Positions 37,503 through 41,947 are shown, numbered from the stretch's first letter. The stretch is 43,587 nt of DNA from Escherichia phage K1G (NC_027993.1), one strand, 5' to 3'. The notes: generated from the letters alone by a model not told the origin. Made by a program: numbers and translations.

Positions 37503-37705
37503 TGCGAATCCGTATAACTGACCGCAGGCTTATCCGTATAACTGACCGCAGGCTTATCCGTATAACTGACCGCAGGCTTATAGATTTCGGTATCTCGGTA
37601 GGTGATGTTTTTCCGGCGTTCAGCATCAACCATTATGGTTTTATGATTGAGTACAAAGGGTCGTTATTGTTCGTGTATCGGGATGAATGTGAGGTTCTGG
37701 TATGA
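37502..37705 (+). CDS. small protein containing three RITDRRLI repeats
   Basis: ATG overlaps upstream stop (TAATG), RBS GAGGGAGG; 3 x 24 bp tandem repeat is in frame. Confidence 0.4.
   Translation: MRIRITDRRLIRITDRRLIRITDRRLIDFGISVGDVFPAFSINHYGFMIEYKGSLLFVYRDECEVLV
37510..37581 (+). repeat. perfect tandem direct repeat, 3 x 24 bp (CCGTATAACTGACCGCAGGCTTAT)
   Basis: three identical consecutive 24-mers read directly. Confidence 0.9.
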
Positions 37706-38050: not shown

Positions 38051-38184
38051 TGTTCAATAGTTTGGGATTTTACTGAGTGACTTACGCTGCTACACAGCAG
38101 CGTACAACTTTAACTTAGTGTCGTCAAAAGGCGACACTTTCATCAAACGCAACAATCGAAGCGACTATTGCAGGAGATGCAACA

Positions 38185-38358
38185 ATGATTACTAAAGAAC
38201 AGGCTGAACGACTAATCACGTTAATCGACACGATGGTTGATGCGAAAACCGATTTAGCAACGGCAACAGAGGAATCCGCTACCTGGTCGCTTGAAGAAAG
38301 AGAAGCAGAAGCGGAAAGGGAGTTACTGGCGTTCATCGACTCTATAACACACCAATAA
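38185..38358 (+). CDS. small acidic hypothetical protein (57 aa)
   Basis: RBS AGGAG 10 nt upstream of ATG. Confidence 0.45.
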   Translation: MITKEQAERLITLIDTMVDAKTDLATATEESATWSLEEREAEAERELLAFIDSITHQ

Positions 38359-38425: not shown

Positions 38426-38614
38426 ATGTTTAATTCAAACGAGCATTTGATTAAGGTTACCCCGTGTTGGGCCGGGTATCAGTTGGCGCACGACGGAAAG
38501 CACGTACCTAAACTTGTATTTGCCAATTATGAAGTTGCCCGCGGTTGGGTTAGCGCCGGAAAGAAAGGCGAACGCGGAATAATGAAGGTTGGATTTGTAG
38601 GAGATACGAAATGA
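38426..38614 (+). CDS. hypothetical early protein
   Basis: 62 aa, RBS GAGAGGAGAG. Confidence 0.5.
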   Translation: MFNSNEHLIKVTPCWAGYQLAHDGKHVPKLVFANYEVARGWVSAGKKGERGIMKVGFVGDTK

Positions 38615-39039
38615 ATAACAACGACGCAGTATTCGAGTACTTGGTAGCGGCAATGCACCTAACACTGGACGAACGTAAGGCGCACAAGCAGCAGTGCGAA
38701 GACCTGGCGCACGAGGTGCAGTCACTTAAGAACCAGTTACGTGATGCTTCGGCGCAGATTAAGGAGCTACACATGGCGTTGGCTACTGCTACAGGCGACG
38801 TGGAGGCGTACAAACTTATCCGCAAGGGCGAGCAATCTGGTTGCCGTAAGGAAGACGTTCAGGGATGCGTGCACGAGTGGGCGCTTGATGAAAAAGGTGA
38901 CTACTTCGTTTGCACTAAATGCGGTAAGCAAGAAGCGGAATTGAACGATTGCCAACACACTAATACTGTTGGTTTGCGTAAGGGTTTTGCGCCGGGGTTT
39001 ACTAAAAAGTGTCTGGATTGCGGGGCTAAACTGAAATGA
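38611..39039 (+). CDS. coiled-coil plus Zn-ribbon protein
   Basis: C-terminal CVHEW...CTKCGK...CLDCG; paralogous motif to 41292 and 41530 ORFs. Confidence 0.55.
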   Translation: MNNNDAVFEYLVAAMHLTLDERKAHKQQCEDLAHEVQSLKNQLRDASAQIKELHMALATATGDVEAYKLIRKGEQSGCRKEDVQGCVHEWALDEKGDYFVCTKCGKQEAELNDCQHTNTVGLRKGFAPGFTKKCLDCGAKLK

Positions 39040-39239
39040 CCAGCATCTTATTTATCTGGGTACTGTCGGCGGGCCAGATGCAACTAGCGGCATCGGAAAC
39101 GTTTTATTCGATGGAGGCGTGCCAGTCAGCGGCACGCGCCGCAGAGAACGCGCACTTTCTGTTTCAGGGTGACAAGCCCAACGATTCAGAGGTACGCGCT
39201 ATCTGCTCACCTAAGCGACTTGGTAAACAGGAGAAATAA
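39036..39239 (+). CDS. small protein with N-terminal hydrophobic/signal segment
   Basis: 67 aa, ATGA overlap. Confidence 0.5.
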   Translation: MTSILFIWVLSAGQMQLAASETFYSMEACQSAARAAENAHFLFQGDKPNDSEVRAICSPKRLGKQEK

Positions 39240-39532
39240 TGTCGTTAGCAACTGACATCCTGAAACGAAGCGGCCTTGCGCCGCTGTCGCCGAGAGCGAA
39301 TACGCGTATACACAAGCGCCGCCGTAATGCACTGTACCCCGAGATTCAGGCCAGACGCAAAGCGGTACGCGCCTGTGGATTCCAGAACGGGAAGGCTGTG
39401 AATCTCGGTGAGTTTAAAACACAGGAACGCGCAGCAATCGCTAATCGGCTATTTAATTACTGGAAATCGTTGGGATACGATGATATTCCGACGAAACCAC
39501 AGAGACGACAATACATCTGGCGCCATAAATAA
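39239..39532 (+). CDS. hypothetical basic protein
   Basis: 97 aa, Arg/Lys-rich. Confidence 0.5.
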   Translation: MSLATDILKRSGLAPLSPRANTRIHKRRRNALYPEIQARRKAVRACGFQNGKAVNLGEFKTQERAAIANRLFNYWKSLGYDDIPTKPQRRQYIWRHK

Positions 39533-39607
39533 ACCGTTATTAAGATAATTCCTACCCGTGGTATCCTCCAGTTACTGCATACTTAATACGCACCTGGAGG
39601 ATTCATC

Positions 39608-39916
39608 TTGGATAAATTTACTGAAACAGTGACGGGGTGGCTTCTCGCCGCCGCACTGGTCGGTGGATTGGTCGGGCTAAGACAACATAAAAAGTCTATA
39701 TCCGGGCCGATTGACGGACTGGTATTTCTTCTCACCGGCTTCGCGTGTGCTATTTTCGGTGCACCTCTTGCCGCTCAATGGTTCGGTATTACCGGTGAGC
39801 GTGAGATAGCTGGCCTCGGATTCATCATTGCCATTCTCTGGATGCCTATCTATTCCCGCCTTTCTGGCATCGTATCGGGTGGCGATATTGCCCGCCCAGG
39901 AGGACCGCATGACTGA
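39608..39916 (+). CDS. holin candidate (TTG start)
   Basis: 102 aa with 2-3 hydrophobic helices; RBS GGAGGA 6 nt upstream of TTG; immediately upstream of endolysin cassette. Confidence 0.5.
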   Translation: MDKFTETVTGWLLAAALVGGLVGLRQHKKSISGPIDGLVFLLTGFACAIFGAPLAAQWFGITGEREIAGLGFIIAILWMPIYSRLSGIVSGGDIARPGGPHD

Positions 39917-40181
39917 GCTATTCTGGTTTGTCACAATGCTTTCAATGGGCGCTTCGTCCCTGTTCAACGTGTATAATGAACGCGTGGACGACGGGCTGTT
40001 CGGGCGTGTTCTCTATATCCTGACTGCTATCGTCTGTGCCGCCGGATGTGTTCACCTGTTACAGGGCAGCATGTCGCCTACGCTGCCTGAGACATTAATC
40101 ACATTAGTCGCGCTGCGCCAGATTCGCCAGGCGTGGCTGTCATACGGAGGACATAAGCGTGTCTCGAAATATTTCAGATAA
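39909..40181 (+). CDS. second holin-like membrane protein (holin/antiholin)
   Basis: ATG 39909 with RBS AGGAGG; two hydrophobic segments; overlaps neighbours. Confidence 0.5.
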   Translation: MTELFWFVTMLSMGASSLFNVYNERVDDGLFGRVLYILTAIVCAAGCVHLLQGSMSPTLPETLITLVALRQIRQAWLSYGGHKRVSKYFR

Positions 40182-40644
40182 TGGATTGCATTTCTGTGCC
40201 GCGTTCGAGGGATTCCGCGGAACTGCGTATCGCGCTACGCCGAATGAGAAGTATCTTACTATTGGCTACGGTCACTACGGGCCAGACGTAACACCAGGTA
40301 AGACCATCACACCAGGACAGGGCTTGCTGTTACTGAATCGCGATATGGCTAAGGCTGTAGCTGCTGTTGACGCAGCAGCACACCATTCGCTTACACAGGC
40401 ACAGTTCGATGCGGTGTGTGACCTGGTCTATAACGTGGGGGCTGGCGTGATTTCGGCTACTACCGGTACAGGTAAGGCACTGCGCTCCGGTGATATCGCG
40501 ACGTTACGGGCTAAGCTGGCGCTGTTCATCAACCAGAACGGCAAACCACTACTTGGCCTGCGTCGCCGTACAGCCGGGCGTCTGGCGCTGTTCGACGGTA
40601 AACCGTGGCAAGAGGCTGAGGCTATCGGTAGGGCGGTTAAATGA
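40159..40644 (+). CDS. endolysin, T4-lysozyme-like (GH24), GTG start
   Basis: AAFEGFRGTAY...TIGYGHYG catalytic-region motif; RBS ACGGAGGA. Confidence 0.8.
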   Translation: MSRNISDNGLHFCAAFEGFRGTAYRATPNEKYLTIGYGHYGPDVTPGKTITPGQGLLLLNRDMAKAVAAVDAAAHHSLTQAQFDAVCDLVYNVGAGVISATTGTGKALRSGDIATLRAKLALFINQNGKPLLGLRRRTAGRLALFDGKPWQEAEAIGRAVK

Positions 40645-40771
40645 TGGACGAATACGAAGGCGTTTAGTAAACTTACATCCACGCTGTTTGTGCCTGCATA
40701 CTAAGCCCCGGTAAACCCGAAGCAGCAGCCCAAGCGGTGGAGACTGCGTAGGGTTCAGGGGCTTATGCCCG

Positions 40772-40803
40772 AAACCCGGACCGCGAATCCGGGTTTTATT
40801 TTA
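40772..40803 (+). terminator. rho-independent terminator
   Basis: ACCCGGA-CCGCGAA-TCCGGGT hairpin followed by TTTATTTTA. Confidence 0.6.
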
Positions 40804-40807
40804 CCAA

Positions 40808-40836
40808 TTGACACCTGAGACTAATCCGACGATACT
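40808..40836 (+). promoter_or_regulatory. candidate promoter TTGACA-N17-GATACT
   Basis: perfect -35, 4/6 -10; sits between two terminators. Confidence 0.35.
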
Positions 40837-40842
40837 TAAATC

Positions 40843-40909
40843 ACCTCCTGTTCCATCCCTCTGCTCTCCAGTTTTATCCCGGCCCTTACCCAGCCGGGAT
40901 TTTTTTTAT
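40843..40909 (+). ncRNA. candidate ~65-nt small RNA with anti-Shine-Dalgarno-like motif AUCACCUCCU
   Basis: promoter-terminator unit with no ORF; C/U-rich body; 10-nt match to 16S rRNA 3' end sequence. Confidence 0.25.
40878..40909 (+). terminator. rho-independent terminator
   Basis: CCCGGC-CCTTACCCA-GCCGGG hairpin followed by ATTTTTTTT. Confidence 0.7.
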
Positions 40910-40929
40910 CCGTTTTCTGTAATGACTAG

Positions 40930-40958
40930 TTGACTATTACCTTAGACCCTATTATATT
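40930..40958 (+). promoter_or_regulatory. promoter TTGACT-N17-TATATT
   Basis: hexamers and 17-bp spacer read directly; upstream of ORF 40992. Confidence 0.5.
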
Positions 40959-40991
40959 TACTCCATCGACAACGAGAACGGAGTAGAGAAA

Positions 40992-41141
40992 ATGAAAATC
41001 ACAGACATCGAAGCATTCAAAGACGCACAACTGATGGCACGCATCGCCGTTAGTAACCTGAGCAACAGCATTCCAGCGGACGCGTTCTGGTTCGCTGCGA
41101 TGCAGACACTTAAAGCAGCTTATGCAGGAGAGAAGAAATGA
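40992..41141 (+). CDS. small hypothetical protein (49 aa)
   Basis: RBS GGAGTAGAG; ATGA overlap with next ORF. Confidence 0.45.
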   Translation: MKITDIEAFKDAQLMARIAVSNLSNSIPADAFWFAAMQTLKAAYAGEKK

Positions 41142-41299
41142 GCGAACAAGGCCCAGTAAGCCAGCCGTTACGAGTAGGCCGTAAAGTCAGTCACACCCCG
41201 TTCCCGACACGCGAGGAACTGATGAAACGTAACAGTTTCCCCGGCCCGGACAAGAACAAGTATCTCAATCGCATGTGGGGAGAGTGTAAAAATGACTGA
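41138..41299 (+). CDS. small hypothetical protein (53 aa)
   Basis: translationally coupled chain of ORFs. Confidence 0.4.
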   Translation: MSEQGPVSQPLRVGRKVSHTPFPTREELMKRNSFPGPDKNKYLNRMWGECKND

Positions 41300-41537
41300 C
41301 CGTGAATACGAAAAGATGATGGTTGAGGCCGTTAACGGCGGCGCAGACATTAGCCATGTGATGCACGTCCTGAATACTAAAATCGCTGTAGCTGAGCAAA
41401 TGGTTGAGTCGCTTTATGAGACGCGCCGTGAACTGATTAACCGCTTCAACCTGAACAAGTGCGAACATGAGTTCGACTACAATCCGAAGGATATGTGTGG
41501 GCAGTGTATTAAATGCGGGGTACAGCGTCATGCCTAA
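41292..41537 (+). CDS. small Zn-ribbon protein
   Basis: C-terminal CEHEFDYNPKDMCGQCIKCG. Confidence 0.5.
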   Translation: MTDREYEKMMVEAVNGGADISHVMHVLNTKIAVAEQMVESLYETRRELINRFNLNKCEHEFDYNPKDMCGQCIKCGVQRHA

Positions 41538-41778
41538 AATCACAATCGCATCGCTCGAGCGCCGTATTCTGGTGCTTGAGTCGGAGAAACAGACGCTAGG
41601 CGGGCAACTGTCGATTAACGGTGAGTACCAGTTAGCCGCATTTAAGGTTCTTCTCATGTTGTTGAGAGGAGAAGAGGAAAAGATGAACGCCTGCGAGCAT
41701 GATTACCGCCTGCATTTAGTTGATGGGGAGCATCGAGTCACATGCTTAAAATGCGGTAAAGCGTATGAAAGCGCCTGA
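41530..41778 (+). CDS. small Zn-ribbon protein (paralog)
   Basis: ATG 41530; C-terminal CEHDYRLHLVDGEHRVTCLKCGK. Confidence 0.5.
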   Translation: MPKITIASLERRILVLESEKQTLGGQLSINGEYQLAAFKVLLMLLRGEEEKMNACEHDYRLHLVDGEHRVTCLKCGKAYESA

Positions 41779-41947
41779 ACCCGTAGTTATCGATGGCGTC
41801 CTGTGGAAACCATACTCGGTTAACCACATCGACGCCGACGGGAAGAAGTTCAGCTTCTACATTTTTGCAATTAGCCGTGAGCACGCCGCTTGTGTGGTCG
41901 ACGATATACGAGAAACGGCGTGGCTCGGTGATGAGATAGTGGGGTGA
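41765..41947 (+). CDS. hypothetical protein
   Basis: 60-aa ORF in coupled series. Confidence 0.45.
   Translation: MKAPEPVVIDGVLWKPYSVNHIDADGKKFSFYIFAISREHAACVVDDIRETAWLGDEIVG

Follow-up and report, generated by a model that had tools for sequence, protein, structure and literature searches.

Three small open reading frames (ORFs) of Escherichia phage K1G (NC_027993.1), here called genes A (38611..39039), B (41292..41537) and C (41530..41778), encode proteins which probably share one architecture: a helical N-terminal domain specific to each protein family, followed by a terminal four-ligand zinc ribbon. The favoured reading is that only the ribbon is homologous among the three proteins and that it is a portable cassette. 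All three genes lie on the plus strand; coordinates refer to the 43,587-nucleotide stretch analysed, referred to as the window. In related phages the ribbon has been gained, lost, multiplied, fused and swapped as a unit at the C-terminus. This putative zinc-ribbon family is uncatalogued; the module is in neither Pfam nor NCBIfam, and it shuffles C-terminally in phage accessory proteins.

The core common to A, B and C is C-x-H-[DE]-[WFY]-x10-12-C-x-K-C-G, and it lies at the C-terminal end. An initial annotation of this DNA had called the three ORFs, which are present as described, including the ATG start of C at 41530. The C-terminal Cys/His pattern it reported is real in all three, but the spelling given for the second half, C-x2-C-x-K-C-G, fits B only. 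One ribbon had been assigned to each ORF; this holds for B and C, but A has a second, basic ribbon (residues 114-138) which had been missed. The 23 distinct ribbons collected here align cleanly, and the C, H, C, C and G columns of the alignment are invariant. Persistence of the pattern in orthologues, on which the initial annotation had staked its case, was found in part: ligand columns are 92-100% conserved in those orthologues which bear a ribbon, but in many others the whole ribbon has been lost.

Profile comparison with hhalign aligns the ribbons of A and B (E 3.6e-4), A and C (E 4.5e-5) and B and C (E 1.9e-5), and only the ribbons; the N-terminal regions of the three proteins do not align (E 0.09-0.2, probability <1%). 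BLASTP among A, B and C likewise pairs only the ribbons (E 0.001-0.01). A ribbon profile built from the A family alone was compared with 782 segments of the window. It ranked the C ribbon first (E 1.1e-5) and the B ribbon next (E 0.032), and no other window segment fell below E 0.4. The hhalign and A-only results support a homologous Cys/His module at the C-terminus of three small helical proteins, as had been proposed.

The pattern might instead be due to chance, or to convergence among unrelated Cys-containing tails. The motif is short, and its loose form (C.H.{4,25}C..C) matches four times when the 43.6-kb window is translated in all six frames, a count reached in 5 of 300 residue shuffles (mean 1.0). 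B scores only E 0.032 against the A-only profile, and look-alike CxHxW...TCxKCG repeats are found in unrelated secreted bacterial proteins. However, all four loose matches fall within A, B and C, three neighbouring small genes; the ribbons share idiosyncrasies, namely a C-x-H knuckle, a His followed by [DE][WFY], and C-x-K-C-G-K; the ligands are invariant in the alignment; hhalign pairs the ribbons at E 2e-5 to 4e-4, and the A-only profile finds C at E 1.1e-5; and other N-terminal domains carry an identical linker plus ribbon. The strict pattern C-x-H-[DE]-[FWY]...C-x2-C was observed three times against an expected 0.003, an expectation which overstates significance because the pattern was written after the data had been seen. 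On this evidence, a chance origin is extremely improbable and close to refuted.

The three genes had also been described as a paralogous family, and this description does not hold. About 25 residues are shared (20-29 overall); the ribbon is the sole part for which homology is detected, and the N-terminal domains appear unrelated at the level of sequence. The full-length proteins are members of three separate PHROG families, 6094 (A, E 9e-56), 1402 (B, E 7e-36) and 9023 (C, E 4e-47), all labelled 'unknown function'. These families are defined on whole proteins, so the shared ribbon is not recorded there as a unit. As only the ribbon is shared and the N-terminal domains belong to different families, what links the genes is the shuffling of a domain rather than paralogy. 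Nor are the ribbons recent duplicates within the genome, an idea which was considered and rejected: DNA likeness among the window ribbons is limited to the 14 nt of the C-x-K-C-G codons.

Gene A encodes 142 residues, is preceded by AGGAG, which resembles a ribosome-binding site, and has 1279 homologues. Its product consists of a coiled-coil helix, a linker and two CHCC ribbons. The helical region (residues 3-76; 38617..38838) has a legible heptad a/d series (L32-V36-L39-L43-A46-I50-L53-L57) and gives at most weak coiled-coil matches in Pfam and PDB. The linker EQSGCRKEDVQG (38833..38865) precedes ribbon 1, and its Q75, G77, C78 and K80 are nearly invariant; this linker (EQSGCRKED) occurs once in 102 of 142 A-type proteins and twice in four of the 142. 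Ribbon 1, CVHEWALDEKGDYFVCTKCG (residues 86-105, CVHEW...CTKCG; 38866..38925), is slightly acidic with a net charge of -1. It is replaceable; other ribbon types occupy its position in orthologues. Ribbon 2, CQHTNTVGLRKGFAPGFTKKCLDCG (residues 114-138, CQHT...CLDCG; 38950..39024), has a net charge of +5 and is the most conserved part of A, with a mean pairwise identity of 93%; C114, H116, C134 and C137 are invariant in 49 sequences. Ribbons of this type are the terminal ribbon in most A-type proteins.

Across the A family, proteins range from 88 to 249 residues and carry one to four ribbons of at least ten sequence types, along with variable coiled-coil inserts. Some members (P0011, P0064, P0085, P0118, P0363 and P0394) have a domain of about 55 residues inserted between the coiled coil and the ribbons. 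It reads SW[IV]EH.GAACPVPDDT.VDIKFRNG...W.WG...GPY[ED]IVAYRV and has no match in Pfam or NCBIfam.

Gene B encodes 81 residues, with a helical N-terminal domain (residues 1-56) and an optional ribbon, CEHEFDYNPKDMCGQCIKCG (41460..41519), whose net charge is -1 and whose ligands are C57, H59, C72 and C75. A further cysteine, C69, is a non-ligand; it is Y, R or S in orthologues. The N-terminal domain ends ...RRELINRFNLNK; its identity is 90-98% in those listed Kagunavirus homologue clusters that lack a ribbon, and about 71% on average among ribbon-bearing homologues. In 105 of the 120 best B-family homologue clusters the N-terminal domain is kept and the ribbon is missing; the tails found in its place are GDTNA..., ...DDFDGDYRNGDFYEGAE and ...GDGHESA. 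Among 382 phage records with a B homologue, 186 have it at full length. Salmonella phages illustrate both states. The Jerseyvirus Shelanagig (L006 1501-1731) retains the ribbon, with C69 replaced by S, and phage Jersey (L007 1468-1677) has an in-frame deletion which begins at the first ribbon Cys codon and ends at the last, so that its B orthologue ends ...NLNKCGATKR.

Gene C (ATG at 41530) encodes 82 residues, a helical hairpin followed by the ribbon CEHDYRLHLVDGEHRVTCLKCG (residues 55-76; 41692..41757; net charge -1). No part of the protein varies more than the ribbon loop, whose identity is 59%, compared with 93% in the N-terminal domain. In 51 of 118 C-family clusters the N-terminal part is kept and another tail, for example ...EEEQKLLLSPEFDYGVDDESA, takes the place of the ribbon; full-length homologues are found in 56 of the 115 phage records which have one. 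Taking B and C together, the ribbon is wanting in about half of the phage records with a homologue, where acidic or short tails stand in its place. When the DNA is compared with that of fEg-Eco06, the mosaic breakpoints fall exactly at ribbon boundaries. In B, homology ends at 41458 and restarts at 41530, so the B ribbon is a cassette of 71 nt; in C, homology is lost over 41627-41767, with breakpoints at 41626 and 41768.

The acidic-aromatic motif EFDY is common to the B ribbon (CEHEFDYNPKD, 41466-41492) and to the ribbon-less C-family tail SPEFDYGVDDESA (for example in P0316), a tail found in many C orthologues. Alternative B tails, DDFDGDYRNGDFYEG, are likewise acidic-aromatic.

The ribbon could instead be read as a partnerless, zinc-stabilised cap which stabilises tiny helical proteins or shields their C-termini from host proteases. 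The ribbon is always at the extreme C-terminus and ends four to six codons before the next gene start; it is interchangeable with unrelated short tails, and it has no detectable specific homology. A cap would, however, hardly account for up to four tandem ribbons or for the near-invariance of the 17-residue basic loop in A, and ribbon-less orthologues persist. This explanation is very unlikely.

The portable-cassette reading is further supported by the same linker and ribbon on other N-terminal domains. Protein P0421 consists of DUF7438 (E 5e-15) followed by EQSGCRKEDARGCEHDW...CRICG, that is, an A-type linker plus ribbon. In tblastn, its N-terminal domain matches 38185-38355 of the window and its tail matches A ribbon 1. 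The window gene in question (38185..38358, plus strand, 57 residues; Pfam DUF7438, E 4e-13) has no ribbon. The unit is fused to at least one further N-terminal domain, DUF7438, and A-type linker and ribbon are also found on the N-terminal domains of P0386 and P0426. The C ribbon weakly matches phrog_4188, phrog_27542 and phrog_6094.

A ribbon-profile search of 1.84 billion representative proteins returned 77 matches at E<=1e-3. These fall into three groups: many A-like phage variants, tiny two-ribbon proteins (such as P0403 and P0374), and secreted bacterial proteins. The last group is made up of lipoproteins and of giant surface proteins, in which CxHxW...(T)CxKCG units recur. They have the same C-x-H-x-W ... 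C-x-K-C-G spelling as the phage ribbons and match the ribbon profile at E 1e-13 to 1e-4, scores which accumulate over many repeats. Unlike the phage proteins, they carry lipoprotein signals or fn3, NPCBM or GDSL-lipase domains, and extra Cys residues. The likeness may reflect homology or convergence. Bacterial lipoproteins and surface proteins bearing these units include P0376, P0416, P0423, P0367, P0375 and P0414. Among the proteins of 2600-4200 residues with such repeats, one has an fn3 domain; of three smaller hits of the same kind, one has NPCBM, one has GDSL-lipase and one has no Pfam match. No Pfam family covers the bacterial repeat itself, apart from a partial C1_1 match.

Structures were predicted for A and C with AlphaFold2 (AF2), using 40-sequence alignments. 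Helices followed by beta-hairpins were obtained for both, in support of the coiled-coil/Zn-ribbon description in the initial annotation. A is modelled as a long helix over residues 3-76 (helices 3-61 and 64-76; predicted local distance difference test score, pLDDT, 75-85) and then two hairpins, the ribbon strands being placed at 90-92/99-101 and 119-121/132-134 with low confidence. C has helices at 6-22 and 29-53 and a beta-hairpin at 59-64/67-72 (strand pLDDT about 70-80; mean pLDDT 83). The knuckles of A and C are thus predicted to be carried on beta-hairpins.

Several points weigh against the cassette reading or limit it. The tie of B to A-type ribbons is marginal (E 0.032) if B is kept out of the profile. 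AF2 confidence is low for the A ribbons (pLDDT 50-63), and zinc binding by the ribbons is proposed from their ligand pattern. Loss of the ribbon in about half of relatives implies that it is dispensable for the role of the N-terminal domain. No match in Pfam, NCBIfam, PADLOC, PDB or BFVD is informative on the function of A, B or C: scans of the three proteins and of variant homologues against Pfam, NCBIfam and PADLOC gave just weak coiled-coil or generic ribbon noise, and curated ribbon models stayed below cut-off (best in Pfam, Zn_Ribbon_TF, 11.4 bits against 29; none in NCBIfam). PDB sequence searches with the ribbon profile and the A profile returned generic CxxCG knuckles and coiled coils alone, every Foldseek match in PDB had E>1, and BFVD yielded uncharacterised phage proteins only. 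A PDB match to T7 gp5.9 (E 0.09) was set aside as not significant. Literature searches on zinc-ribbon proteins, anti-defence and Jerseyvirus zinc turned up nothing relevant.

Under the cassette reading, the helical domain, which is a long coiled coil in A and forms a helical hairpin in C, would carry the family-specific activity or oligomerisation. The ribbon, with C-x-H in its first knuckle and C-x2-C-G in its second, may be a zinc-stabilised binding adaptor, although this is suggested with low confidence. Contact with protein would be likelier for A ribbon 1 and the ribbons of B and C, which are slightly acidic and variable in their loops, and the invariant, strongly basic A ribbon 2 may contact nucleic acid or an acidic surface; such a division is no more than a hint drawn from net charge. 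A more specific idea is that the ribbon is an address tag, a mobile cassette which phages of the subfamily Guernseyvirinae add in differing copy number and with differing loops to unrelated small effector domains, and which brings these to one host hub, such as RNA polymerase, the ribosome or a protease. We consider this quite unlikely. If it were true, variation in ribbon loops and copy number would track variation in the hub or in host defences, and the acidic-aromatic tails of ribbon-less orthologues (SPEFDYGVDDESA) would be an alternative presentation of the same epitope.

The ribbon links several phage "dark matter" families (phrog_6094, phrog_1402, phrog_9023 and DUF7438) as one testable handle, and natural ribbon-plus and ribbon-minus variants already exist for comparison. 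Should all ribbons have a single partner, its identity could point to what hundreds of hypothetical proteins do in the therapeutic Kagunavirus and Jerseyvirus phages. Should there be no partner, what is seen is ordinary phage mosaicism at the level of sub-gene domains. It should be noted that zinc ribbons and phage mosaicism are each commonplace and that no function emerges from the analysis.

Among known folds, the ribbons resemble the zinc-ribbon fold group (S27e, Rpb12, TFIIS/TFIIB and the archaeal small CPxCG proteins) in having four ligands on two knuckles 10-17 residues apart, a second knuckle C-x2-C-G, and predicted beta-hairpins. The weak PDB profile matches are to S27e, Rpb12 and similar proteins, and cover the CxxCG knuckle only (E >= 0.007). 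Whereas the first knuckle of that group is C-x2-C, the ribbons here have C-x-H and, directly after it, an acidic and then an aromatic residue.

Phages encode small zinc-finger regulators of expression, and A, B and C might be of this kind. DksA/TraR proteins consist of a coiled coil plus a zinc finger and bind the secondary channel of RNA polymerase; P2 Ogr and P4 Delta are late-gene activators, and Mu Com is a translational activator. In architecture they do resemble DksA/TraR: within 80-140 residues, a four-ligand zinc site is joined to a coiled coil or helical hairpin. Some members of that family, which includes phage and plasmid TraR-like proteins, are likewise small and on mobile elements. 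The terminal ribbon of A is basic (+5) and invariant, as would be expected for contact with nucleic acid, and the genes lie just upstream of lysis and packaging genes. However, the Pfam families zf-dskA_traR (PF01258), Ogr_Delta and Mu-like_Com are unmatched even at E<=1, and no DksA or TraR structure is among the fold-search matches listed. The ligands here are CHCC, with C-x-H in the first knuckle, versus C4 in DksA/TraR (C-x2-C-x17-C-x2-C); the ribbon is at the extreme C-terminus rather than embedded; and the hairpin loop of C, TLGGQLSINGE, lacks an acidic DxxDxA tip. The regulators P2 Ogr / P4 Delta and Mu Com and the anti-restriction protein Rac Lar are similar in being phage-encoded, zinc-binding proteins of fewer than 100 residues whose genes keep company with accessory or regulatory ones. 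They differ from A, B and C in ligand spacing and in having no exchangeable C-terminal ribbon on a coiled coil, and A, B and C have no Pfam match to them at E<=1. Loss in half of relatives would also be unexpected for a regulator of essential late genes. A regulatory role of this type is decidedly unlikely.

The window looks like a complete genome of a Kagunavirus siphophage of E. coli K1 (subfamily Guernseyvirinae), opened at the large-terminase gene; by megablast, it comes nearest to the K1 phages K1ind1/2/3 and K1H. Structural genes occupy 1 to about 24.8 kb on the plus strand and replication genes 25.2-36.1 kb on the minus strand, followed by a control region (36.1-37.3 kb). Beyond it, the plus strand carries a group of small ORFs with A among them, the holins and endolysin (39608-40644), a further group of small ORFs to which B and C belong, and finally the terminase genes. 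The lysis cassette therefore sits between A and B/C. The neighbours of A, B and C are other small genes annotated without function (DUF551, DUF7438, DUF2737 and DUF3850/ASCH) in highly mosaic regions, and A, B and C are best described as small cytoplasmic accessory proteins encoded in hypervariable accessory-gene regions.

The initial annotation had placed the genes in the early region and had proposed that they are host-takeover or anti-defence effectors. The early placement is unproven: the lysis cassette separates A from B and C, and the B/C unit follows two terminators and is co-directional with the terminase genes. The proposal of diversified early takeover or anti-defence proteins, with ribbon loops engaged in an arms race, is compatible with a portable cassette, to which it adds function and timing. 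In its favour, the genes stand among small genes of unknown function in highly mosaic regions, their presence differs between close relatives, the ribbon loop is the most variable part of C, and sigma-70-like promoters precede the B/C cluster. On the other hand, no known host-takeover protein is matched, and PADLOC (defence proteins), Pfam and NCBIfam gave nothing informative; the genes lie on either side of the lysis cassette and point towards the terminase genes; and the terminal ribbon of A is highly conserved, not diversifying. The available Kagunavirus transcriptome (phage K1B4) names four early genes, of which one is identified; its gene calls skip the A region, and it is too coarse for timing A, B and C (PMC12645636). 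Takeover or anti-defence is thus an unlikely explanation, though less so than the other alternatives considered.

Transcription signals are concentrated in the 350-bp gap after the endolysin gene, where two terminators and two sigma-70-like promoters interleave. A terminator-like hairpin with a U-run lies downstream of the endolysin gene (40771..40803, plus strand; fold -14.4 kcal/mol, z -3.0), and a second, with U8, follows at 40876..40908 (plus strand; -13.8 kcal/mol, z -4.3). Both were missed by a consensus scan and were found by reading the sequence. One promoter, TTGACT-17-TATATT, is ahead of the B/C cluster (40930..40958, plus strand); the other is at 40808-40836. A promoter is annotated at the corresponding position in the phage Jersey record, and related records have either a promoter or a terminator there. 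B and C therefore open a separate unit after the two terminators, co-directional with the terminase genes and running towards them. No canonical terminator separates A from the holin gene downstream of it, so A and the lysis genes probably share a transcript.

A, B and C are packed tightly, their start and stop codons overlapping with those of neighbouring genes. In all three, the last-knuckle codons TGCGG(G/T) fall 7-11 nt 5' of the next ATG (38911-39038, 41505-41532 and 41743-41767); the codons which end the ribbon may double as the ribosome-binding region of the downstream gene. Third-codon-position excess in comparison with relatives supports the plus-strand frames of A and C as coding. 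An antisense ORF of 130 residues which overlaps B and C (41265-41657, minus strand) was rejected as a real gene on codon-position bias and conserved plus-strand orthologues; it is probably spurious.

Directly after C is an ORF of 60 residues (41765-41947) which belongs to phrog_10509, function unknown. The fEg-Eco06 orthologue is annotated as 'RNA polymerase inhibitor, similar to 2LMC_A' (T7 Gp2). A T7 Gp2-like identity was rejected for the K1G ORF, as the PDB sequence search gave no such match.

Other features of the region lie outside the three genes. A 9-bp stem, UCCUCCAGU...ACCUGGAGGA (39560-39612), pairs the GGAGGA Shine-Dalgarno sequence just 5' of the TTG start (39608) of the first holin ORF; its fold z-score is just -2.0, and it might regulate translation of the holin. 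Two strong hairpins, whose 9-bp stems are UACGCUGCU...AGCAGCGUA and GUGUCGUC...GGCGACAC, are found at 38083-38140 between the DUF551 and DUF7438 genes, with no clear U-run after either. A perfect 24-bp tandem repeat, ATCCGTATAACTGACCGCAGGCTT (3.1 copies, 100% match), is found at 37508-37581, just downstream of the divergent control region. It yields repetitive 'RISLRSVI' and 'RITDRRLI' ORFs, on both strands; the repeat units could be iterons or operators.

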